From Nitrospirales bacterium (GTDB lineage Bacteria; Nitrospirota; Nitrospiria; Nitrospirales; UBA8639), in assembly GCA_965223295.1 (NCBI GenBank), contig CBDCWC010000003.1:1760001-1824000 (forward strand): a stretch of DNA of 64,000 bases, read 5' to 3'. The notes below the pieces were generated by a model. That model did no database searches. It was not told where the DNA came from and saw nothing but the letters and a program-made list of their open reading frames with translations. Shown piece by piece: positions 4 through 13,122 of this stretch (positions within the stretch are counted from its first letter, which is position 1; every line of letters starts with the position of its first letter). The translations under genes and the position numbers were made by a program.

Positions 4-3000
4 TTGTTAATTGAACAAGGAAAGCGGGAGGAAGGATTAGCCCAATTGAAACGAGGCGGCCTGGACACTCGGGATCTTGTGACCGCTCAGGTGCAAACTG
101 TTGATATCTTACTGCAGGAGAGACGTTTTCAAGAAGCCTATCGTGAAATTGAAAGGTTGTTAGAAGAAACTCCAAATGACAAGACTGTTCAGGTGAAACT
201 TGCTAACTATTATGTTCATCGGCGACGCCTGCCCCAGGCCCAGCGGCTCTATGAGACCTTATTGGGAACCTCGGTAGACAAAGAGAGCCGGATGGGATTG
301 GTGAACGTGGCATTAGCACGAGGCAATCTAGAATCGGCCACTCACTATCTTGCAGATCTTCACCAACAATTTCCTCAAGATCCGTATATCCAAAAACAAC
401 AGGTGTTGTTATGGGGACGAGAAGGACGTATTGATTCTGCGTACAGGGGACTCGCCCAGATGACGCTAGAACCTCTGCGTAAGTTGACTGAAGCAGAACT
501 CTTGAATGTCACGGGGCAGTACTATTCTGCCGAGTCGCAGTTTTCTGAGCTGGTGACTGAACAACCTGGTCATTATGCCGCCATGATGGGGTTGGCCTAT
601 GCCTATGTCGGGCAACATGATGACGCGAAAGCGGCTGAGGCTTTACATTCTGTACTGGAAAAATTTCCTGAAGATCTGGAAGCGCGGTTGGCGCTTGTCG
701 AGATTCTCACGTATCAGCGTCGTTGGGAAGCGGGAAGGGAAATGCTGTCACCGGTCCTTCAAGAAGAGCCTGATGTCCTAGAAGCTATCTATCTGGACTA
801 TCAATTGAATGACCGGGTTTCGTCTTCAGGAAAAAGGAGAGTCTCACCTTCCGCCCGTCATTGGTGGAACGATACTATTCATGACTCAGAAGAAGCTATT
901 CGAGCAAAACAACAATTAGCTCGATTTGAGGATCTGCATGGTATCCGTGAAGTTTCCGCTCCGTTTCTTCGGGAAGCCCCTCTGTCAACCTCTCTCTTAT
1001 CACAGTGGACTCGAGCCATGATTGTGACGGGCCGTTCACCAGAGGGTCTCAAACGTCTTCAGTCACATCAGGAGCAATCGAGCCAGGACGTGAGATTGTC
1101 CAGAGCGACATTTCATGCACATGAGGGAGAAGATTCCGATGCGATGGCCTTACTCGAAGATGTTTCTCCTACCGTCGAGAAAGGACACCTCTATCAACAA
1201 TTAGGGGACTGGGAGCAGGCAGAACAGACCTTCTCGGCTATTATCCAAAAAGATGCAAAACATACCAGAGCACACATTGGCAGAATCACCAGTTTAGCTA
1301 TGATCGGCGAGGAGTCAGCTGCACAAGATGCGTTGCAGCAACTCTTTGAAGAATGTCCGGAACAAGGCTGGCCGGCCCTGGCCGCGCTGTTGGTGTATGC
1401 AGAAGGCTCGAGTTCTTCATATCAATCCATGCTACAGACTGAATTCAACGCGCGAGGGTTAGATGATGAGCCTGAGAGTTTGGACACTCGATTACGGTAT
1501 TTGGCCTTGTTGAGCCGACAAAAGGAATATGCTGACGTTGTTCAGCAGTATCAGGCGCTGAATCGCGACAACCCTCAACGTCCGGACTTGGTTCTAGGGT
1601 TGGCTCGAAGTCTTTCGCAAGATCAGAATTCACGAGCCATGCATGAATCGCAGCCTGTTGTTGAGGCCTATGACCACTACCTGGCGTTAAAGCCGTATGA
1701 TGTGGCGGTGTGGACAGAAAAAGCGAGATATCTTGGATGGCAGTCCAAGTATTCTGAGGCAGAACGGGAGTATGAGGCAATCCTGGCGCAGTATCCCCAT
1801 GAAGACGTCGTGAGGTTAGAACTCGAAGGTAAGCAAAAGTTTTGGCGAAGACACGACCGCATGGCCTATCAACGATATCGGGAAGTGTTGGAGCTTCGCC
1901 CTCAACATGAAGAGGCTCTTAGTGACCTCGGCCAAATTCATAGCGCGGCATTTCGTTTTGAGGATGCTCGACCCTATTACCGAAGACTGCTGGCAGGAAA
2001 TCCCGGCCATCGGCTTGCGAGCGAATCGTTAGAACTAACAAACATTTTTGCCCCCCCTCAAATCACGGCAGGGATTGGGTACGTCAAGATGGATGGGTTT
2101 GATGGTTCATTGTTGACCAAATACATGCCCGTGACTGGCGAGGTGTTCGCCCCATTTTCACAAGATTTTTGGGCGGGAGTAGGCTATCAATGGGTGAAGT
2201 TTGATATACCTGGGAAACCTTCTTCGGCCAATATTGGGCGGGTCATGGCTAGATATTCGCCTTCGCCGTTTTGGCATATTGATGGCTATGTGGGTGGTTT
2301 GAAGTACTCAGGCACCAACAAATCCAATGTGAATTTTGGAGCAGGCGTGTCGTATGAATGGCAGTCGGGGTTGAAGGGCCGAATTGAAACGGGCAGGCAA
2401 GATCTTTGGCAGAACGCCGAGACGATTCGGCGAAACCTGTCGTATCATTCATATGCGGTAGGGGCAGAATACAACGTGACCAAAGAATTAGAACTAACCG
2501 CTGGAGCAGGCTTCTGGGATTATTCCGATGATAATTGGAACGTGAACGGACAATTTTCAGGCACGTATTCGTTGCTGCCGTTTCCTCATCCACTTCGGGT
2601 CACCTATCAACTGGACACATTTGGTTTTGATGAGAAGAGCGTCTATTTTTCTCCAGAGTTCTTTGCCAAAAATACCTTTGCGATCGGGTGGCAACATTTT
2701 CTTGGGTTCCCCCGTCGTAAGGAACATCACGGAGAGTCGCCCATGAGGAATCGATATTCCGGGACGGACATTGGACAATATTTGGGCTGGCCGATACGTC
2801 CCGTGTATTTGCCCAAGACAGCTTTAAATGCGTATTCATTGGATTATGGGTTCTCTGTTGATGATGAAAACAATCTCTATCATCAAGTGTCAGCGTCGTT
2901 TGCCTATGCGATCACCAAACGATGCCATCTCCATGCCGTTGGCATGATCATTCGGGCGGATGTGGTGGACCAGGATTCTGTGAATGGATTTTTGCAATGT

Positions 3001-3009
3001 CATTTATAA
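4..3009 (+). CDS. TPR-repeat protein with C-terminal outer-membrane beta-barrel (BcsC/PgaA-like exopolysaccharide export protein); probably 5'-truncated by the window edge
   Basis: Long TPR-like helical repeats followed by alternating aromatic beta-strands; directly upstream of a GH8 endoglucanase. Confidence 0.7.
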   Translation: MLIEQGKREEGLAQLKRGGLDTRDLVTAQVQTVDILLQERRFQEAYREIERLLEETPNDKTVQVKLANYYVHRRRLPQAQRLYETLLGTSVDKESRMGLVNVALARGNLESATHYLADLHQQFPQDPYIQKQQVLLWGREGRIDSAYRGLAQMTLEPLRKLTEAELLNVTGQYYSAESQFSELVTEQPGHYAAMMGLAYAYVGQHDDAKAAEALHSVLEKFPEDLEARLALVEILTYQRRWEAGREMLSPVLQEEPDVLEAIYLDYQLNDRVSSSGKRRVSPSARHWWNDTIHDSEEAIRAKQQLARFEDLHGIREVSAPFLREAPLSTSLLSQWTRAMIVTGRSPEGLKRLQSHQEQSSQDVRLSRATFHAHEGEDSDAMALLEDVSPTVEKGHLYQQLGDWEQAEQTFSAIIQKDAKHTRAHIGRITSLAMIGEESAAQDALQQLFEECPEQGWPALAALLVYAEGSSSSYQSMLQTEFNARGLDDEPESLDTRLRYLALLSRQKEYADVVQQYQALNRDNPQRPDLVLGLARSLSQDQNSRAMHESQPVVEAYDHYLALKPYDVAVWTEKARYLGWQSKYSEAEREYEAILAQYPHEDVVRLELEGKQKFWRRHDRMAYQRYREVLELRPQHEEALSDLGQIHSAAFRFEDARPYYRRLLAGNPGHRLASESLELTNIFAPPQITAGIGYVKMDGFDGSLLTKYMPVTGEVFAPFSQDFWAGVGYQWVKFDIPGKPSSANIGRVMARYSPSPFWHIDGYVGGLKYSGTNKSNVNFGAGVSYEWQSGLKGRIETGRQDLWQNAETIRRNLSYHSYAVGAEYNVTKELELTAGAGFWDYSDDNWNVNGQFSGTYSLLPFPHPLRVTYQLDTFGFDEKSVYFSPEFFAKNTFAIGWQHFLGFPRRKEHHGESPMRNRYSGTDIGQYLGWPIRPVYLPKTALNAYSLDYGFSVDDENNLYHQVSASFAYAITKRCHLHAVGMIIRADVVDQDSVNGFLQCHL

Positions 3010-3095
3010 CCGGGAGTCGCAACCTTTTCTGGTTGATATTGTAGCATGTGTTGGAGACAGATAGGTTCGTGTTCTCTCTGCTTGGGTGCGCTTGT

Positions 3096-3283
3096 GGGAG
3101 TGTTGAATAGTAAAGATATCAAACGCCATACTTCGCAATGGAGCCCTTGGCGTTCAACAGCGTCGGGTCTGTTCAAAAAAGTCCGTCCAGCAAGGCCACA
3201 GCCATTTTCGCGCGTGGAGCGTACTGGTCCTACGTGAGCACGGAAAAAGGGCGAAAACGCTGGCGGCTTTTTTCAACAGACCC
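3096..3283 (+). mobile_element. MITE-like repeat, copy 1 (subfamily A)
   Basis: Homologous to four other copies; ends GGGAGTGTTGAA...TTCAACAGACCC; flanked by CTTGT/CTTGT. Confidence 0.85.
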
Positions 3284-3284
3284 C

Positions 3285-4532
3285 TTGTCTATTGTTGCCT
3301 ATCTCAGAACGTTGTGGTTTTTTCTGCTTCTCTTGACTTTTTTGGTGTTGACTAGCTGCCACTCGTCACGACCTATGCTGCCGATTAACACTTTGATTCC
3401 CTTGGCTTGGGAAGGCTATCAACAGCGGTTTATTAATGCTGATGGACGAGTGTTCCGGCCGTTCAATCAAGACGATACGGTGTCTGAGGGACAGGCCTAT
3501 GCATTGCTGATGGCGGTGGTGTTGGATGATCGTCAGACGTTCGACCGTGTATTGAATTGGACGACCACACATCTCTCTAGATACCAAAAATTTGGTGATC
3601 ATCTTTTAGCGTGGCATTGGGAAGTGGAGAAGGGTGTGACGGATTGGAACAGCGCATCTGATGCGGAAGTGGATTTGGCGTTGGCGCTGCTCTTAGCATG
3701 TGCACGCTGGGAGGATGAAACGTATCGTACGCAGGCTTTCCTTCTTCTCCAAGATATTCTGGACCTAGAGACCGAAGTTATTATTGGCGATGAACGGTAT
3801 CTCATGCCGGGTAATTGGCGTTTGGGTCACAAGATTCATCTACTGAATCCATCGTATTTTTCTCCTGCGCACTTTCGGTTGTTTTATCAGGTCACTGGTG
3901 ATGAACGGTGGAACGAGCTTCTTCGGAGTACCTATGCCTTTTTGCATCGATTACCGCTTCAGGAGATTGTCCCGGTTCGGGCTGGGTTAGTTCCAGATTG
4001 GATCGGTATTGATCCCCAAGGTAACCTAAAAATTACTGAAGGATTTTCTCAACATGTCACTTGGGATGCAGTGCGAATGCCATGGCGGGTTTCCCTTGAT
4101 GTGTTATGGGGGCAAGGACCGTGTGGCCATGATACGGTCTCAGGTTTGGAGCATATACGGAGCATCACGGACTTTTTGGCTCAAGAATGGGATGAACGGG
4201 AAGGTCAATTTTTTCTGGAATACGGTCTCGATGGGAACCCCATCAAATTTGAAGAACAGGTAGGTGCGTATGCGATGGCTTTGCCAGCGTTACAGAGCTT
4301 GCAGTCGAGTCTTACTACAGGAGTCATGAACAAGATACAAGCATTGTTTTATGAGGAGGGGCAATATTTTCAGAATGCCCAGGATTACTATCAAAATAGT
4401 TTAAGTCTCTTAGGCCTTTTGTCCCTTCAATCAGCCAGTACTCAGGGCTTGCCCTCTTTAGTTCATGAACTCCAGAACTATACTCAGAATGACATCACAC
4501 TCTGTGCCAGCCGGACGAACTCTTTACGGTAG
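3285..4532 (+). CDS. bcsZ: Glycoside hydrolase family 8 endoglucanase (BcsZ-like), probable lipoprotein; start uncertain (TTG 3285, or ATG 3138 inside the repeat)
   Basis: GH8 motifs TVSEGQAY, NSASDAE, LNPSY, WDAVR; lipobox-like LVLTSC. Confidence 0.85.
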   Translation: MSIVAYLRTLWFFLLLLTFLVLTSCHSSRPMLPINTLIPLAWEGYQQRFINADGRVFRPFNQDDTVSEGQAYALLMAVVLDDRQTFDRVLNWTTTHLSRYQKFGDHLLAWHWEVEKGVTDWNSASDAEVDLALALLLACARWEDETYRTQAFLLLQDILDLETEVIIGDERYLMPGNWRLGHKIHLLNPSYFSPAHFRLFYQVTGDERWNELLRSTYAFLHRLPLQEIVPVRAGLVPDWIGIDPQGNLKITEGFSQHVTWDAVRMPWRVSLDVLWGQGPCGHDTVSGLEHIRSITDFLAQEWDEREGQFFLEYGLDGNPIKFEEQVGAYAMALPALQSLQSSLTTGVMNKIQALFYEEGQYFQNAQDYYQNSLSLLGLLSLQSASTQGLPSLVHELQNYTQNDITLCASRTNSLR

Positions 4533-4580: not shown

Positions 4581-5564
4581 TCATGGTTTTCGAGCGAGCG
4601 CCAGGCTGATGAGTTGGTCGGGGTCGGTATACCATTTGACCAATTCAAATCCTGCGGTGTTGAGGAGATTCTCAGTCAAGGGGCGATCATACTTAGTGCT
4701 AAGTTCGGTACGAATTTCTTCGTCTTTTTTGAGCAGCACAAAGAGGTCAAGTTCTGGGATATCAAGGGTCTGTTCCTGGGTTGATCGTAACCACATTTCA
4801 ATCCGATGTGCATCTGAGTTGTAGCGCGCAACATGCTCGAAATTGTCTGGGTTGCATTGGGCGCCCAGTTGGGTCTGTAGGACTCGAAGAATATTTTTAT
4901 TGAATCTTGCCGTAATACCCTTTTGATCATTATAGGCGGCTTCTAATCGGGCAGAGTCGGTGATGAGTTGTACTCCTAATAGGAAATAATCCCCTGAGGC
5001 CATTTCGGTGTTCACCGCCGTAAGAAAATCTTCAGCAGCGAGAGTTGGGAGATTGCCGATGGTCCCTCCCAAAATTACGACTAGCCGTTTACCGCCTTCA
5101 GGAATATGTTCAAGGTGAACTAAAAAGTCTCCCGCGACACCATGGACCTGAAGCCCAGGATATTCCTTCACAAGTTCTTCGGAGACGCGGCGCACAATGG
5201 TTTCATCCACATCAAATGGAATGAAATGCCGGAGTTGGCCCACCTCGGTCATCGCGTCTAGCAAGACGCGGGTTTTGGTTGCGGCCCCTGATCCCAATTC
5301 AACAAGTTCCTCGGCTCCACTCAGGGCAACGATTTCATCAGCCCACCTGACTAGCAATTGGTGCTCAGTCCGTGTTTGATAATATTCCGGCAATTCGCAA
5401 ATTTGTTCGAAGAGCGTCGAACCCCGTTCATCGTAGAAAAGTTTTGATGGCAAGGTTCTTGGATTGGCAAGGAGGCCTGTTTTGACGAGATCCCCCAATG
5501 TCTCGGGTTTTTCTCTCGTGATGGGTACGTCGATCGTAATTGATGCCTCGGTTTTTGAATCCAT
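4581..5564 (-). CDS. egtD: L-histidine N-alpha-trimethyltransferase (hercynine synthase)
   Basis: PSKLFYDERGS..LPEYYQTRTE, LVELGSG, GGTIGN, AAYND..GITARFN, IRTELSTKY. Confidence 0.92.
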   Translation of the reverse strand: MDSKTEASITIDVPITREKPETLGDLVKTGLLANPRTLPSKLFYDERGSTLFEQICELPEYYQTRTEHQLLVRWADEIVALSGAEELVELGSGAATKTRVLLDAMTEVGQLRHFIPFDVDETIVRRVSEELVKEYPGLQVHGVAGDFLVHLEHIPEGGKRLVVILGGTIGNLPTLAAEDFLTAVNTEMASGDYFLLGVQLITDSARLEAAYNDQKGITARFNKNILRVLQTQLGAQCNPDNFEHVARYNSDAHRIEMWLRSTQEQTLDIPELDLFVLLKKDEEIRTELSTKYDRPLTENLLNTAGFELVKWYTDPDQLISLALARKP

Positions 5565-5836
5565 ACATTCCTCCCTGGTTCGAGAACAACCGAATCTAGT
5601 GAGATAAATATTTCTGTTAACGGCTTGTGATGAACGTGTTATGTACGTTCAGATGTTGATAAGCAGATTCCTTCTTAATACAAAGGAAAAGCGAATGAGA
5701 TTGGAATAGGGAAGAATGAAATAGGAAATGATGGGAACACTATACTGGGCATGATCCATGGATGCAACCGACAATCATGATATGACCACTCAAATAATAA
5801 GACAGATGAATCGTAAAAACGTGAATGGTTGCTGGG

Positions 5837-7441
5837 TTATCGTGTCGATTCCAAACCTCTGGGTCTGACCCATCGTTCGATCCAACCGAGGAGGCTATCA
5901 ACAAGTAATGCCAGGATTGTGGCTGGCAAGGCTCCAGACAGAATCACATGGACATTGGCTAGTTGGAGGCCTGAAACAATGGGGACTCCTAATCCTCCAG
6001 CTCCAATGAATGCGGCGAGGGTGGCCGTTCCGACGGTCCATATGGCGGCAGTTCGAATGCCAGCCATGATGGTGGGGGCCGCCAGTGGCAGGCGCACTGA
6101 TCGTAAAATTTGCCATTCTGTCATGCCAAGGGCCCGACCGGTCTCGACGACCGATGGGGCCGCATCGCGCAGACCTGAAAAGGTATTGCGCACGATGGGG
6201 TAGAGAGAATAGATCCACAGGGCCATGATGGCGGGGAGGGTTCCGACGCCAAACAGTGGAATCATAAAGGCTAACAAGGCTATGGAGGGAATGGTTTGTG
6301 ACATGCCGATGAGACGGATCATCGTTTCTGCGCCTGTTCGCCACCGCTCCAGTAGAAACGCAAGGGGGATGGCGAGCAGAATGCCAAGCAATAGTCCCAA
6401 GCCAGCCAATCCCATATGTTCTCCTGTGCGAACCAGCAATGTTGTTCGTTGTTCCCATAGATAAGTCAAGAATGATGAGGAGCTCTTTGTCGTTGACGTT
6501 GTTGGCCGCTGTGTTTCTTTGACGAGGTGGAGAGTTTGCAAGGCGTCAGAGGCCACGTGGGGTATGGGTTCACCCTGTTCTTGGATTCGGAGATTCAATT
6601 CACGCATCCGTGCTGGGTTGAGGGCATGAGTCAGTTCGCTCAGCACTAGGGCTAATTCAGGATGTTCGGTTAATGTTTCGCCCCGCACGAGTGCGGTGGC
6701 CTCATAGGGCGGAAAAAATCGGAGATCGTCTTCTAAGACAATAAAATCATATGCGGCCAAACGACCGTCGGTTGTGTAGACATCCAGCACATCAATGTCT
6801 CCATTCTTTGTGGCTTGGTATTTCAGGGATTGTTGCATTCCTACGACTTCATGAAACTTCAGTCCATATCGTTGTCGCAGTCCTGGCAAGCCGTCAGCCC
6901 GTTGGATAAATTCGTAGCCAAACCCGGCTTTCAATGTTGGAGAAACCTTCACTAAATCCGTAATCGTGCGGATACCCAAGGCTTGTGCGTGATCTCGTCT
7001 GAGAGCCAGTGCATAGGAATTCTCAAATCCCAATGGTGCCAGCCATCTTATATCCCACCGTGCCCGAAATTCACTTCGTACTCGGTTCAAGACAGCCGCT
7101 GGATCGTGCATAGCTTCTTCCCCAAGAATGGTGACGAGACCTGTGCCGGTGTATTCTGGGTACAGATCAATGCCGCCGGTGGTTAGTGCTTCAAAGCATA
7201 TTTGTGTGCCGGCCATTCCAAATCGTCGTTCTACCGTTAAGGTCGTTTGGGTTTCGATCAATTGTGCGAACATTTCTGCGAGAAGTCGATTTTCTAGAAA
7301 ATTTTTTGAACCCACAATGATGGTCGTTTGAACTCCAGACCAGGAAGCTGTGTGATACATCAAGAGCAGTGAGAGAGCGAAAATGCCTCCCGCGATCCAT
7401 TTTACAAACGACGAGTTTGGAGAACAAGAAACATTCAGCAT
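5837..7441 (-). CDS. Betaine-family (OpuBC/EgtU-like) ABC transporter, substrate-binding domain fused N-terminally to a permease
   Basis: SBP motifs GSKNFLE, YPEYTGT, EFIQRADG, YTTDG, FFPPY; permease motifs QTIPSIALL, FIGAGGLG; start placed at the ATG just after the ATPase stop. Confidence 0.88.
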   Translation of the reverse strand: MLNVSCSPNSSFVKWIAGGIFALSLLLMYHTASWSGVQTTIIVGSKNFLENRLLAEMFAQLIETQTTLTVERRFGMAGTQICFEALTTGGIDLYPEYTGTGLVTILGEEAMHDPAAVLNRVRSEFRARWDIRWLAPLGFENSYALALRRDHAQALGIRTITDLVKVSPTLKAGFGYEFIQRADGLPGLRQRYGLKFHEVVGMQQSLKYQATKNGDIDVLDVYTTDGRLAAYDFIVLEDDLRFFPPYEATALVRGETLTEHPELALVLSELTHALNPARMRELNLRIQEQGEPIPHVASDALQTLHLVKETQRPTTSTTKSSSSFLTYLWEQRTTLLVRTGEHMGLAGLGLLLGILLAIPLAFLLERWRTGAETMIRLIGMSQTIPSIALLAFMIPLFGVGTLPAIMALWIYSLYPIVRNTFSGLRDAAPSVVETGRALGMTEWQILRSVRLPLAAPTIMAGIRTAAIWTVGTATLAAFIGAGGLGVPIVSGLQLANVHVILSGALPATILALLVDSLLGWIERWVRPRGLESTR

Positions 7442-7451
7442 GGCAGTCTGG

Positions 7452-8195
7452 TCATTGAGATTGGTGTTGAAGCAGCGTTGCCACATACGGGGTGGCTGGA
7501 GAAGCCATGAGTTCTTGTGCCGTGCCAATCTGATGAATGTACCCATCTTTCAGCACCGTAATACGATCACCGAGGCGAAAAGCTTCGGACATATCATGAG
7601 TAATCAAAGCCATGGTTTTGTGAAGGCGAGTTTTGAGAGCCAGAAACTGTTCGTGTAATTCCCGGCGTGTGATGGGGTCTAAGGCACTGAAGGGTTCGTC
7701 TAAAAGGACGATGGGCGGGTCTGCTGCTAGGGCTCTGGCGACGGCGACCCGTTGGCGTTGTCCGCCGGATAGTTCAATAGGATAGCGGTCAGCTATGTGT
7801 GCCGGATCCAGGTTGACCAATGGGAGCAAGGTATTCAGGCGTTGTTCTTGTTGCTCAACGGGCCATTCTAATAGTTGCGGAACTAAACAAACATTGTGCC
7901 TGATGGTCCAATGAGGCAACAGACCACCGTCTTGAGGTATGTATCCCAGTCGGCGTCGCAGGGTGATTGGGTTGTGATCGGTTGCAGGTTGCCCCTGAAT
8001 ATAGACTTCGCCGGACGTTGGATCTACGAGACGGTTGAGTAAACGCAGCATGGTCGTTTTTCCTGACCCACTTTCTCCAATAAGTGCCATCGTTTCACCT
8101 TGTTTCACCTCCCAGTCGATATCGTGGAGTGCATAGGTGCCGTCGGGAAATCGTTTGCTCACGCGTTGGAGTATGAGGTCACAGCTTTGTGTCAT
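7452..8195 (-). CDS. ABC transporter ATP-binding subunit (OpuBA/OsmV-like)
   Basis: Walker A GESGSGKT, signature LSGGQ, Walker B LLDEPFSALD. Confidence 0.9.
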   Translation of the reverse strand: MTQSCDLILQRVSKRFPDGTYALHDIDWEVKQGETMALIGESGSGKTTMLRLLNRLVDPTSGEVYIQGQPATDHNPITLRRRLGYIPQDGGLLPHWTIRHNVCLVPQLLEWPVEQQEQRLNTLLPLVNLDPAHIADRYPIELSGGQRQRVAVARALAADPPIVLLDEPFSALDPITRRELHEQFLALKTRLHKTMALITHDMSEAFRLGDRITVLKDGYIHQIGTAQELMASPATPYVATLLQHQSQ

Positions 8196-8495
8196 AGAAA
8201 GTTCAGACGTGAGTGCAAGGAGAAGTTTCTCAGGCAACTACCGTCTTCAAGCACCGATTGAGAGTTCTACGGTCATAGATGGATTGTTGCCAGGATAGCA
8301 GGGAACGCGAATGGTGGCTAGCAAAAGAAGAGAGGCCAAGGTCCTGAATGATGTGAGGCGCAGAGGACTGAATTTTCTTGAACTCACGGGAAAAACTTTT
8401 GGATCGGCAGTGTTTTCGCTATACTATGGACAGCTCCATGCGGAGCTTTTTTTATTGGCGCCAACGATGAGTCTTTTTTCGTTCCGTTTTTATGA

Positions 8496-9725
8496 ATGAG
8501 GTCAAGCATGCTGACACAATGTTCCAGTCTTCAACAGGAATTAGAACAAGCCCGTAGCCTGACAGACCGACTTTTTGCCATGGTGAGTCCAAGGGCAGTA
8601 TATGCCCGTCCGATTCCTGAACGCCATCGATTGATATTTTACCTAGGTCATCTCGAAGCCTTTGATTGGAATCAATTGTGTCGCTGGACATTGGGTAAGC
8701 CGTCTTTTCATTCTTCATTTGACCAACTATTTGAAGCGGGTATTGATCCAGCAGTGGGTACTGCATCCACCGATATGCCTTCTGATTGGCCAACAGTTAA
8801 GGAAGTGCAAGGGTATAATTTTCGAGTCCGACAAGAAGTGGATCGGGTTTTAGAGCAGGTGTCTGATGAGATGATTCATGTGATTATTGAACATCGTCTC
8901 ATGCATGTTGAAACAACGGCTTACTTGTTGCAACACCTAGATTTTACTGAGAAACAAGACCCATTCTCATCACGGCTATCTTACGACGACCATCTTCCTA
9001 CAGAAGAGATGGTGAAGATTCCGGAAGGATGTGCTCGTTTAGGTCGTTGTAAGGAGGAGGGGTTTGGTTGGGATAATGAATTTAATAACCATGAAGTGTT
9101 TGTTCCAGAGTTTGCGATTAGCCGATATAAAATTACCAACGCCCAATACCAGGCATTTGTAAAAGCGGGTGGGGAGCCGCCTGCCCTCTGGAAGCGTCAA
9201 GGCCAAAATTGGTTTTTAAGGACAATGTTTTGTGATGTTCCTTTGCCTCTTTCTTGGCCGGTCTATGTGACTCGGCAACAGGCTCAGGCTTATGCCACAT
9301 GGAAGGGATGGTCTCTCCCAACCGAAGCGCAATTTCATCGTGCAGCTTATGGAACTCCTGTCGGAATTGAGCAAGAATTTCCCTGGGGTGATTGGGCAGT
9401 TCGCCGGGACTATGGCAATTTCGATTGTCATGCTTGGGATCCCGTCCCGGTCACGGAACACCCACAAGGAGCCAGCGCGTTTGGCGTTGCACAAATGGTT
9501 GGAAATGGTTGGGAATGGACATCGACGTTGTTCCGCCCATTTGAAGGGTTCAACCCTCTCCCGACCTATCCTGGATATTCTGCACGGTTTTTTGACCAGG
9601 ACCATTATGTGGTGAAAGGTGGTGGGCCTCAAACCGCCAGAACATTATTGCGGCGCTCGTTTCGAAATTGGTTCCGTCAGGATTATCCCTATGCCCACAC
9701 TGGGTTTCGTTGTGTGAAAAATTAG
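8496..9725 (+). CDS. egtB: Non-heme iron sulfoxide synthase, EgtB/Egt1/OvoA family (DinB_2 plus FGE-sulfatase domains)
   Basis: IFYLGH, HRLMHVE iron-binding motif, FGWDNE, LPTEAQF, GNGWEWT, RRSFRNWF; divergent from egtD. Confidence 0.8.
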   Translation: MRSSMLTQCSSLQQELEQARSLTDRLFAMVSPRAVYARPIPERHRLIFYLGHLEAFDWNQLCRWTLGKPSFHSSFDQLFEAGIDPAVGTASTDMPSDWPTVKEVQGYNFRVRQEVDRVLEQVSDEMIHVIIEHRLMHVETTAYLLQHLDFTEKQDPFSSRLSYDDHLPTEEMVKIPEGCARLGRCKEEGFGWDNEFNNHEVFVPEFAISRYKITNAQYQAFVKAGGEPPALWKRQGQNWFLRTMFCDVPLPLSWPVYVTRQQAQAYATWKGWSLPTEAQFHRAAYGTPVGIEQEFPWGDWAVRRDYGNFDCHAWDPVPVTEHPQGASAFGVAQMVGNGWEWTSTLFRPFEGFNPLPTYPGYSARFFDQDHYVVKGGGPQTARTLLRRSFRNWFRQDYPYAHTGFRCVKN

Positions 9726-9849: not shown

Positions 9850-12276
9850 ATGAGTGTTCTCTTCACGTTTGTTGATCCACGCCGATGGTGGGCTGATCTG
9901 GCAGGTGTGTGGAGAGATACTCGACTGATCGTCGTCACAGCTCAAATTGCGGCGATATATGCCGCGATTCTTATTCCGTTCAAGGCAGGAATACCCATTA
10001 TTCCAGGATTTGTGGAGCTGCGTCCGGCTAATGCCGTTCCTATTGTTGCATCTCTATTATTTGGCCCTGCAGCGGCATGGGGAGCTGGAATAGGCAATAT
10101 TATTGGTGATTGTTTTGGGACGTTAGGCCCCGCCAGTCTGTTCGGTTTCTTCGGGAATTTTTTCTTAGGCTATCTGCCTTATTTGTTCTGGGGACATCTG
10201 GGGTGGTTGTCATCTGGACAGCCGCCCATCATTCAATCTTGGCGGCAAGCTTTAGAGTATGGCGTGATTTGTGTTGTCGCTTCCGGAGCATGTGCGGGAA
10301 TTATTGGGTGGGGCGTGGAACTATTGGGTTTGCTTCCCTTTATGGTGTTGGCGCCTGCGATTTTTTTTAACAATATTGTCATGGCCATCTTTTTAGGTCC
10401 GCCCCTATTGGGATTTCTCTATCCTCGGGTTCAGCGATGGCAAGTGGGATGTGAGCACATACAGCTCGGCACTGTTTCACCAAAGTACTCTGATCAAGTA
10501 AGTCATGCGGATTATGGAGAAATTGATAGCATCCATTGTGTAAATCATCATGCTCAGGGTTCTTTGCCTCTTTTAGATTGTCGAGAATGTTCTTTTTCTT
10601 ATCCCAAACAAACAGTTTCGGCACTTCAGGGCATCACCTTCTCCATTATGCCTGGCGAAATTGTTTTGCTGTTAGGACGTAGTGGGTCAGGTAAATCGAC
10701 GCTCTGCTATACCTGTAATGGGCTGATCCCCCATATGGTTCCAGGAAGCATAAGTGGAACGTTACGAGTATGTGGCTCGGATACACGAACCAAACCGGTC
10801 TGGAAATGGGCGGACAGAGTAGGCTTGGTCTTCCAGGACTTTGAAACGCAACTCGTCGGAACGACGGTCAAATCAGAAATCCTCCATCCATTGGAATACC
10901 ACGACCCACCCCTCTCTTCAGATGATATAGAGGGACGCATTGCCCGGACACTTCATTGGGTTGGGTTGGACGTCAATCTTGACCGTGATCCGATGATGAT
11001 GTCTGGTGGGCAACGTCAACGGCTTGCGATGGCTTCAGTCTTGGTTCAGCACCCGAAGTTGTTAATTTTGGATGAGCCCAGTTCGGATTTGGATCCCGTG
11101 AGCCGTCGACATTTACGGCAGACGCTGCGCCAATTGCGGGATGAGGGAGTGGGCTTACTGCTCACTGAGCAGAGTCACGATGATCTTCAGTTCGCGGATG
11201 AAGTGATGATACTTGACCAGGGCCAGTTGATTTGGAAGGGGCCACCAAGTGCATTGCTCCGAATGCCGCAGATGATGCGGCAGCATGGGATCAGGCCCCT
11301 TGCCCTGACGGAATGTTTTGAGGACCTGGAAGGTGATTCGTTACCTATTACGGTAGAGGAAGCGTGGGCCTATGCGGAGAAATCTCATTTAACAATCCAA
11401 CCTCCAGGGGAGGTGTTGGATGATGTTGTGAGGTTGGGCAAGCGAGCTGGATGGTTAGACAGACAACAAAAACCGTACATTCAGATGAGTAATGTCTGCT
11501 TTCATTATGCGGAACAGCCGGTTCTTCAGAACATTAATTGTGCCATCTACTCAGGAGAGTTTCTGGCCTTGTTAGGAGCCAATGGGTCGGGGAAAAGCAC
11601 ATTGGCGCGATTGCTGAATGGACTCTTGACGCCAACTCAAGGAAAGATTGTTGTTGATGGTTTGGATGCATGTGAGGCATCAATGAACGAGATTGCAAAG
11701 CGGGTCGGCTTGGTTTTTCAGAACCCTGACCAGCAAATTTTTGCTGACACTGTATGGGAAGAAGTAGCCTTTGGTGCCAAAAATTTTGGATGTTCACAAG
11801 ATGAGATCGTGACTCGTGTTCGTGAATCGTTACTGGCAGTGGGGCTTCCGGTCGAGAAGAGTCGTGATTTGGACCCTTTTTCGTTACGAAAAGGCGAGCG
11901 TCAACGTGTGGCTGTTGCTGCAATTCTTGCGACTCAACCCGCTTGCTTGATTTTTGATGAACCGACCACAGGTCTTGATGCCGACGAAACTGACCGCATG
12001 ATGGCCATGCTCAGCGAGTTAAATTGTGAAGGGCATACCGTTGTGGTGATCACCCATTCGATGAGATTGGTCGCTGAGTATGCGCATCGATGTCTTTTAC
12101 TCAAAGAAGGAAAAATTTTGACTGACGGGTCCCCGCGAGATATTTTTCAAGATGTAGATCTTGTCCGTTCTTCATCTTTGGCAATTCCCCATATTGTTCA
12201 GTTTAGTCAACGATGGGGCCAGACATTATTAACTGTCAACGAGGTGAAAGCCTCTCTGAAGCGCAAGTTGGTATGA
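9850..12276 (+). CDS. ECF transporter: QueT-like S-component fused to two ABC ATPase domains
   Basis: N-terminal ~190 aa hydrophobic domain (ELRPANAVP..LFGP..GNIIGD), then two ATPases (GRSGSGKST and GANGSGKST, VFQNPD). Confidence 0.85.
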   Translation: MSVLFTFVDPRRWWADLAGVWRDTRLIVVTAQIAAIYAAILIPFKAGIPIIPGFVELRPANAVPIVASLLFGPAAAWGAGIGNIIGDCFGTLGPASLFGFFGNFFLGYLPYLFWGHLGWLSSGQPPIIQSWRQALEYGVICVVASGACAGIIGWGVELLGLLPFMVLAPAIFFNNIVMAIFLGPPLLGFLYPRVQRWQVGCEHIQLGTVSPKYSDQVSHADYGEIDSIHCVNHHAQGSLPLLDCRECSFSYPKQTVSALQGITFSIMPGEIVLLLGRSGSGKSTLCYTCNGLIPHMVPGSISGTLRVCGSDTRTKPVWKWADRVGLVFQDFETQLVGTTVKSEILHPLEYHDPPLSSDDIEGRIARTLHWVGLDVNLDRDPMMMSGGQRQRLAMASVLVQHPKLLILDEPSSDLDPVSRRHLRQTLRQLRDEGVGLLLTEQSHDDLQFADEVMILDQGQLIWKGPPSALLRMPQMMRQHGIRPLALTECFEDLEGDSLPITVEEAWAYAEKSHLTIQPPGEVLDDVVRLGKRAGWLDRQQKPYIQMSNVCFHYAEQPVLQNINCAIYSGEFLALLGANGSGKSTLARLLNGLLTPTQGKIVVDGLDACEASMNEIAKRVGLVFQNPDQQIFADTVWEEVAFGAKNFGCSQDEIVTRVRESLLAVGLPVEKSRDLDPFSLRKGERQRVAVAAILATQPACLIFDEPTTGLDADETDRMMAMLSELNCEGHTVVVITHSMRLVAEYAHRCLLLKEGKILTDGSPRDIFQDVDLVRSSSLAIPHIVQFSQRWGQTLLTVNEVKASLKRKLV

Positions 12277-12333
12277 GTATAGGGCGGCTTTTTGGGGAAG
12301 AATGAATCCTAAAATAATAGTAGGTGAAATACG

Positions 12334-13122
12334 ATGAACGTTTCTTTGTATGTGAACAAGAATACATGGGTTCATCGGTTAGATGGACGAACAAAAACCC
12401 TGGCCGTCCTCGGCTTCTTTTCGCTAGCGTTGTGTTTTTCGCATCCGGGATACCTCTTTCCTGTCTTGGCCCTCTTGGGTGCGTGTTTGATTGCCGCCCA
12501 AGCAGGGGAAAGTCTCAAAAAGGTATGGGTTTTGGCGGCTTTGTTGGTGGTGTACAGCATGATTCTTTGGCCATTTTTTGTGGAGGGAACAACTCCAGTT
12601 CCTATTTTTCAAGCGATAGGGGTGACATGGGAAGGGTGTCTTTTTGGATTTGGCATGGGACTTCGCTTACTCATCATGATGTTAGGAGGTGTGTGGTTGC
12701 TTTCCACAACAACAATTGAAGAATTGGCGCAAGCCTCTGAGCGCCTAGGCTTACCTTCCAGAATTGGTTTTGCTTTTTCCTTAGCTTTTCGCTGGGTTGG
12801 GATTCTTTTAGGAGCAGGAGTCGGGGTGGTTCAGGCTCAACGTTCCCGAGGATTGGATATTTCATCGGGAACGATCGTTGACCGTATCCGCAAGTATGTG
12901 CCTTTGGTCGTGCCGTTAATTGGACATGCACTTCGTCAAACCAATCTCCTTGCCATGGCCCTGGAGTCTAAAGGATTTCATCCCTTGGCGCTTCGCTCGT
13001 ACTATACCAGGGGAAGGATGACGTGGTTAGATTATGTTGTCCTGCTTCTACTCGGTATTTTACTGGTAGCCAGTGTGTGGATGAGGTGGAGCGGAATCGG
13101 GATAGTAGAGGTGAGATTTTGA
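12334..13122 (+). CDS. ecfT: ECF transporter transmembrane T component
   Basis: HRLDGRTK, AQRSRG and ALESKG motifs. Confidence 0.9.
   Translation: MNVSLYVNKNTWVHRLDGRTKTLAVLGFFSLALCFSHPGYLFPVLALLGACLIAAQAGESLKKVWVLAALLVVYSMILWPFFVEGTTPVPIFQAIGVTWEGCLFGFGMGLRLLIMMLGGVWLLSTTTIEELAQASERLGLPSRIGFAFSLAFRWVGILLGAGVGVVQAQRSRGLDISSGTIVDRIRKYVPLVVPLIGHALRQTNLLAMALESKGFHPLALRSYYTRGRMTWLDYVVLLLLGILLVASVWMRWSGIGIVEVRF

Follow-up and report, generated by a model that had tools for sequence, protein, structure and literature searches.

Examination of a 64,000-nucleotide stretch of the genome of a Nitrospirales bacterium (assembly GCA_965223295.1, contig CBDCWC010000003.1, positions 1,760,001 to 1,824,000; hereafter, the window, in whose coordinates positions are given) revealed a betaine-family ATP-binding cassette (ABC) transporter, comprising a binding protein-permease fusion and an ATPase, to lie between genes encoding the histidine methyltransferase EgtD and a non-heme iron sulfoxide synthase. 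The association of such transporters with ergothioneine biosynthesis (egt) genes is real and conserved. The explanation preferred here, if tentatively, is that the transporter is a moderate-affinity importer that recaptures ergothioneine, working beside a short ergothioneine biosynthesis pathway.

GTDB genomes were scanned using an alignment of 39 fusions as query, and the best 80 of 607 confirmed loci were considered. A locus was defined as linked when egtD or a synthase gene lay within 4 kb, while the number expected by chance came from a simple estimate using genome lengths. The binding protein-first order of the window protein was seen in 63 of the best 80 loci, and 20 of these 63 were linked, as compared to approximately 0.14 expected. 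Linked binding protein-first loci came from nine other phyla, namely, Acidobacteriota, Gemmatimonadota, Verrucomicrobiota, Armatimonadota, Methylomirabilota, Pseudomonadota, KSB1, Myxococcota, and Poribacteria. Among the other 17 of the best 80 loci, one (L119, permease-first) was linked. The first-pass annotation had let its proposal stand or fall with conservation of this linkage, which indeed holds across phyla. When 17 linked synthases from outside Nitrospirota were scanned, 10 passed the EgtB cut-off and two (L080 and L104) the SenA cut-off, with five passing none, including the EgtB-IV-like L091.

In a tree built by a quick method from 100 binding domains, from which L038 and domains shorter than 200 amino acids (aa) were left out and which contains no characterized protein (L116, with G244 and P401 but Y293/F337 in the EgtU numbering given below, is an imperfect EgtU proxy), the linkage label required 12 changes, at least seven of which were forced by well-supported branches. 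This pattern is compatible both with linkage having been gained repeatedly and with its being ancestral and later lost. The window protein clustered with fusions from Acidobacteriota and then from Gemmatimonadota. Of 101 Gemmatimonadota genomes drawn evenly, 38 contained the binding protein, 34 egtD and 27 both, with seven of these co-occurrences falling within approximately 4 kb and four more within approximately 11 kb; the associated odds ratio of 19.6 is overstated by kinship. A metagenome scan returned 29 loci, all of which were checked and found to represent only close relatives, adding no independent support.

Within the genus of the host, the fusion was present in 22 of 24 genomes. In the 19 best genus loci, considered with 1.5 kb flanks, egtD lay downstream in 17 and the divergent synthase gene was present in 10; of the remainder, two loci were truncated upstream at a contig end, and in seven the synthase gene lay elsewhere or was not found. 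The whole cluster was kept in all four genomes of the sister genus that were fetched. In five genomes of two other Nitrospirales families (L028 and L034-L037), the same EgtB-IV-like synthase occurs with a different egtD (approximately 35% identical) and with a permease and a binding protein encoded by separate genes and belonging to another branch of the tree, representing another instance in which these functions are paired. Across 121 Nitrospirota genomes, the transporter was found in 10, full-length egtD in 11 and both in eight, such that full-length egtD was present in 8/10 genomes with the transporter, as compared to 3/111 without, with seven of those eight genomes representing one family. 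As a separate observation, in each of the five genomes of a family designated f4 (L163-L168), the fusion is accompanied by either one or two genes resembling egtD, one copy of which adjoins a gene for a heme-oxygenase-like iron enzyme (PF14518), with no sulfoxide synthase being found in the search; hercynine is possibly the end product in these genomes, or another pathway may be involved.

The host was assigned to the Nitrospirales on the basis of the names of close homologs and is a marine relative of nitrite-oxidizers; its genome is 100% complete and contains a single copy of each of the four genes. Open reading frame examination placed these genes at the positions and on the strands originally reported, i.e., the synthase gene is divergent from the other three (Table 1). 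The open frame of the fusion extends to position 7546, with the probable start being placed at M36, giving 534 aa as in a homolog sharing 91% identity (P0001). This start lies 11 bases past the ATPase stop, while the ATPase itself probably starts at position 8195. The ATPase, fusion and egtD genes are likely co-transcribed. A scan for sigma-70-like sites detected none in the stretch between the divergent genes, and the total for the region (five, as compared to 6.0 expected) was at chance level.

Table 1. Features of the transporter-containing egt locus (window coordinates).
Feature	Position	Strand	Basis
egtD, histidine N-alpha-trimethyltransferase, 327 aa	4581..5564	-	TIGR03438, PF10017
Binding protein-first fusion (anchor helix, betaine-family substrate-binding domain, linker, ABC permease)	5837..7441	-	PF04069 then PF00528
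ABC ATPase, ProV/OpuBA type, without CBS domains	7452..8237	-	PF00005
Intergenic stretch between divergent ATPase and synthase genes, presumed promoter region	8238..8495		Layout; function inferred
Non-heme iron sulfoxide synthase, EgtB-IV-like, 409 aa	8496..9725	+	DinB_2 and FGE-sulfatase

The minus-strand methyltransferase scored 331 bits against TIGR03438 (cut-off, 290.9), aligned over its full length with mycobacterial EgtD (E 7e-82) and retains positions Y56, N166, Y206, T213, E282, and S284 of that enzyme, the histidine-site residues of which are named in PMC8593015. Having passed the cut-off and possessing the histidine-site residues, this protein is identified as EgtD, the enzyme that generates hercynine. 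The product of the divergent gene, earlier labeled EgtB, proved to be a sulfoxide synthase, although one that falls below the EgtB cut-off and instead resembles EgtB-IV. Indeed, all of its profile scores were below cut-off (EgtB, 180 of 360; SenA, 183 of 420; OvoA, 225 of 400), with that for OvoA being highest, while the closest solved structures were those of EgtB-IV (8VIH, E 4.5e-50, and 8VIG), followed by OvoA (8KHQ). EgtB-IV is described in PMC11030361 as presenting the composite motif RxYH--DxHxHYxNWFx, as accounting for 466 of 39,678 sequences and as coupling cysteine to hercynine, a substrate shared by EgtB, EgtB-IV, and SenA. Residues R43, Y49, H52, D84, H133, H137, Y358, N391, W392, and F393 of the window synthase fit this motif, the columns of which were mapped by inference from alignments to 8VIH, 8VIG and 8KHQ. 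The protein contains DinB_2 and FGE domains only, without the OvoA methyltransferase domain. Assignment as EgtB-I/II, SenA or OvoA was ruled out by cut-offs and motifs, and these features fit an EgtB-IV-like enzyme of the OvoA branch predicted to use cysteine and hercynine. To our knowledge, the characterized EgtB-IV members are cyanobacterial. The window synthase shares with 8VIG and 8VIH an OvoA-branch sequence, the composite motif, the lack of an OvoA methyltransferase domain and the absence of EgtA and EgtC, yet is shorter (409 as compared to 463-468 aa), is a distant match (E ~1e-50) and comes from a Nitrospirales host.

The absence of egtA, egtC, and egtE, first claimed for the window, extends to the whole host genome, where a GCS2/EgtA-family search gave no match, the best EgtC match reached 35 bits (cut-off, 218) and the lyase of relatives was not found. 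The lack of egtA and egtC would be explained by an EgtB-IV-like enzyme, since such enzymes use cysteine and need neither EgtA nor EgtC. In seven loci of the family, a gene encoding a class V pyridoxal phosphate (PLP) enzyme lies 3' of egtD (e.g., L023:10248-11336 and L041:11726-12916). This enzyme, present in 18 of the 24 genus genomes, scored 76 bits against the EgtE profile (cut-off, 400) and is a candidate divergent C-S lyase; it was found in neither the host genome nor that of its closest relative (G016). The host genome holds three full-length class V PLP enzymes that might replace a dedicated lyase. Ergothioneine synthesis is, therefore, only predicted in the host. The earlier placing of the transporter in an egt producer cluster is borne out. 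Five Nitrospirales loci, including L041:14856-15830, also contain, close to the cluster, a gene for formiminotransferase, an enzyme of histidine catabolism.

In the fusion, OpuAC (PF04069) spans residues 75-337 and precedes BPD_transp_1 (PF00528) at residues 385-561, an order that, as the first-pass annotation noted, is the reverse of that in EgtU, where the permease is N-terminal and the binding domain C-terminal (Legg et al.). The AlphaFold model of the fusion (predicted local distance difference test score of 90.3) presents an N-terminal helix, a binding domain of two lobes and the permease helices, the two domains being joined by a disordered linker. A fold search returned OpuBC-derived sensors, EgtUC, OpuCC and ProX as near-equal matches (target template-modeling (TM) score 0.85-0.95) and so was not decisive. 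The binding domain is 38% identical to SpEgtUC (target TM score ~0.9) and 31-32% identical to HpEgtU. Osmoregulated OpuA, OpuC, and ProU importers carry CBS domains on their ATPases. By contrast, only ABC_tran and no CBS domain was reported for the 261-aa frame of the window ATPase, which scored 267 bits against TIGR01186 (below the cut-off of 326.6), covering positions 6-232 of the 363 in that profile.

Pocket residues were considered in the numbering of Streptococcus pneumoniae EgtUC, based on an alignment to 7TXL and mapped onto the window protein by motif, with residue roles being those described in portions of Zhang et al. (PMC9732360, together with the bioRxiv version) and Legg et al. 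The window protein keeps the carboxylate clamp K242 (K81), T296 (T135), and R379 (R216), the imidazole-binding Glu E375 (E212), along with D381 (D218), the cage and pocket positions N339 (N176), Y341 (Y178), Y419 (Y257), and Y443 (Y281), as well as E246 and T275. These residues are shared with the EgtU/EgtUV systems (S. pneumoniae SPD_1642-1643, 7TXK/7TXL; L. monocytogenes BilEB, 4Z7E; H. pylori, 8DP6/8DP7), as are the binding-protein fold, the fused permease and the separate ATPase. Unlike EgtU, the window system has its binding domain at the N-terminus, lacks G244, F293, Y337, I243, and P401, and is found in a producer cluster and in environmental Gram-negative phyla, whereas EgtU occurs in host-associated Firmicutes. 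Comparison to H. pylori EgtU at two positions only revealed G113 to match Hp G327 (position 274) and N82 to differ from Hp P296.

In the proposed scheme, EgtD would trimethylate histidine to yield hercynine, to which the EgtB-IV-like enzyme would couple cysteine. Ergothioneine would then be freed by a PLP lyase, for which most relatives have a dedicated enzyme and the host presumably uses a general one. The ATPase, together with two copies of the fusion, would form a type I ABC importer, in the periplasmic domain of which an aromatic cage would hold the trimethylammonium group and K81, T135, and R216 the carboxylate. Ergothioneine import at moderate affinity is considered most likely, hercynine or selenoneine probably being bound as well, and would serve to recapture leaked product and to scavenge ergothioneine from outside. 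This scheme is favored because the linkage described above involves, across nine phyla, partner enzymes of different classes that share the hercynine scaffold, because the window protein retains the EgtU cage positions together with E375, R379, D381, K242, T275, and T296, and because the ATPase lacks CBS domains and two BCCT carriers encoded by the host genome could cover osmoprotection. The number of label changes on the tree, the co-occurrence of transporter and egtD in Gemmatimonadota and Nitrospirota genomes and the lack of a recurring betaine or choline gene near the unlinked loci scanned also speak for it.

Several findings weigh against ergothioneine as the substrate. The markers of Firmicutes EgtU are replaced in the window protein (G244 by F83, F293 by Y132, and Y337 by F174), as are I243 (by N82) and P401 (by Q239). 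The substituted residues are of the ProX/OpuF type, with Y132/F174 corresponding to the AfProX arrangement, and those that are kept serve betaine binding in general. In S. pneumoniae EgtU, the G244F change costs approximately 100-fold in affinity and F293Y approximately 10-fold, and while E375 helps EgtU distinguish ergothioneine from hercynine, the equivalent Glu matters in AfProX too (PMC9732360). G244, F293, and Y337 are found in none of the 20 linked proteins (one being cut short at position 244), and a search of the 63 binding protein-first loci for pocket residues that would set linked homologs apart from unlinked ones revealed no consistent difference. In addition, 43 of those 63 loci are unlinked, with 14 of the corresponding genomes, which are drafts, giving no egtD match and 29 containing egtD elsewhere. 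The genomes compared are related, so that co-occurrence counts overstate independence, and linkage within the genus is tighter to egtD than to the synthase gene, which would equally suit import of hercynine. The window protein is thus not a member of the high-affinity Firmicutes EgtU subcluster, given that G244, the F293/Y337 pair and the domain order are each lacking. The protein may nevertheless work in the manner of EgtU, since ergothioneine is bound even by the G244F mutant of S. pneumoniae EgtU, with a Ka of 2e5 per M, and import at lower affinity is ascribed to H. pylori EgtU, which belongs to the same cluster (PMC9732360). The suggestion that domain order sets apart a distinct importer class fared less well, given the many unlinked binding protein-first fusions, which form a large family, and the existence of egt-linked transporters encoded by separate genes (L028 and L034-L037) or arranged permease-first (L119). 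Domain order was, therefore, dropped as a class marker.

It is possible, if rather unlikely, that the transporter is instead a ProX/OpuC/OpuF-type importer with a broad range of quaternary-ammonium osmoprotectants (glycine betaine, proline betaine, carnitine), adjacent to egt genes through a shared role in stress or shared regulation. The pocket is ProX-type at all three diagnostic positions, and the window protein resembles the AfProX, OpuCC, OpuBC and OpuF-type importers in its four-tyrosine cage, in F at position 244, in Y293/F337 as in AfProX and in fold match, the best sequence and fold matches being OpuBC-derived sensors, while OpuCC, ProX and EgtUC are equally near in fold. Moreover, the fusion is the sole PF04069 protein of the host, and related transporters of anaerobes, one of them binding protein-first (L026), adjoin MttB-family methyltransferase genes. 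Yet the window system differs from those importers in the binding protein-first fusion, the CBS-free ATPase and its egt rather than osmolyte neighbors, with the two BCCT carriers again arguing for osmoprotection by other means. Among the neighbors of unlinked loci, 91 of 108 candidates were scanned and no betaine or choline gene recurred, whereas egtD or a synthase gene does recur, in pairings repeated with three synthase classes. A search for ectoine synthase gave no match in any control genome and so carries no weight.

A hercynine-preferring salvage importer, returning leaked precursor or desulfurized oxidized ergothioneine to the synthase and so sparing three S-adenosylmethionine per molecule, is unlikely, although it would account for several observations. 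The thione contact I243 is lost, at a position that varies freely among homologs (N, K, P, H, R); the transporter remains with egtD where the synthase gene moves, as in L043, the synthases of which lie elsewhere; hercynine is a substrate common to EgtB, EgtB-IV, and SenA; and the f4 genomes pair transporter and egtD in the absence of a detected synthase. Such an importer should, however, permit egtD to be lost while the synthase is kept. When 25 fusion genomes were searched in this respect, five had egtD after all, and EgtB exceeded its cut-off in 0 of the 20 without an egtD match, two of which hold unclassified OvoA-length frames scoring approximately 150 bits. E375, a residue that helps EgtU to discriminate ergothioneine from hercynine, is, moreover, kept. 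The wider proposal that egtD-linked binding protein-first fusions are the first importers selective for hercynine, or for the hercynine scaffold as a whole (hercynine, ergothioneine, selenoneine), with a pocket unlike that of EgtU, is likewise considered unlikely. If true, producers in some ten phyla would run a redox recycling loop, in which desulfurized ergothioneine is recovered as hercynine and re-sulfurized or re-selenated, and these compounds would become shared goods in soils and sediments.

Incidental neighborhood or ergothioneine export is highly improbable: while synteny is inherited inside one family and an unrelated QueT-type ECF transporter gene is likewise kept beside that of the synthase, linkage in nine other phyla and on several tree branches largely refutes chance adjacency, and binding protein-dependent ABC systems with such a fold mediate import.

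Co-occurrence of such genes is already in print as a table: within 5 kb of sulfoxide/selenoxide synthase genes, an OpuBB/PBP2_AfProX_like permease is listed in 5.4% of cases and an OpuBA/LolD/PhnC ATPase in 13.6% (Abbott et al., 2026, PMC13674229, Table 1). The pairing reported there for NHISS-adjacent transporters is of the same kind, but in the portion of that paper considered, these are termed housekeeping, without discussion of domain order, pocket or ligand. A literature search, mostly involving title-level screening and not covering supplements, found no ligand test of a producer-linked importer and no ergothioneine pathway named for Nitrospirales. An EgtB-IV-type pathway is predicted for marine members of this order. 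Those bacterial ergothioneine importers that have been characterized belong to host-associated organisms that do not produce the compound. Should the present family carry ergothioneine or hercynine, producers would import as well, the EgtU residue signature would under-predict importers, and many annotated glycine betaine transporters of soil and marine bacteria would be mis-annotated. The family offers a direct test of what other EgtU-related subclusters bind, their ligands being stated as unknown in PMC9732360.

Elsewhere in the window, a long TPR protein and a GH8 (BcsZ-like) glycosidase are encoded at positions 4-4532, convergent with egtD, probably as part of an exopolysaccharide locus. 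The QueT-type energy-coupling factor (ECF) transporter, with an S component fused to two ATPases and a T component, is encoded directly after the synthase (positions 9850-13122), a position kept only inside the family of the host.

Among related transporters, those of the anaerobes L026, L089, L102, and L106 adjoin genes for pterin-binding as well as MttB-family methyltransferases, settings that suggest quaternary-amine demethylation. In L109 (4798-5865) and L121 (6040-7014), divergent PF10017 methyltransferases (76-79 bits) are encoded directly upstream of related betaine transporters, with no synthase being found in the search of these genomes; these methyltransferases perhaps make another amino-acid betaine. 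Betaproteobacterial binding protein-first fusions (L062, L066-L068, L070, L072, L076, L079, L082, L095, L097, and L100) have no adjoining ATPase gene above the score threshold, and several proteins of 730-810 aa resemble longer fusions in which this pair of domains forms the C-terminal part. Finally, in an anaerobic Nitrospirota genome (L169:2388-5768), a molybdopterin-domain/cysteine desulfurase fusion, with the architecture described for the metallopterin ergothioneine synthase MES (PMC9516567), is encoded beside egtD.

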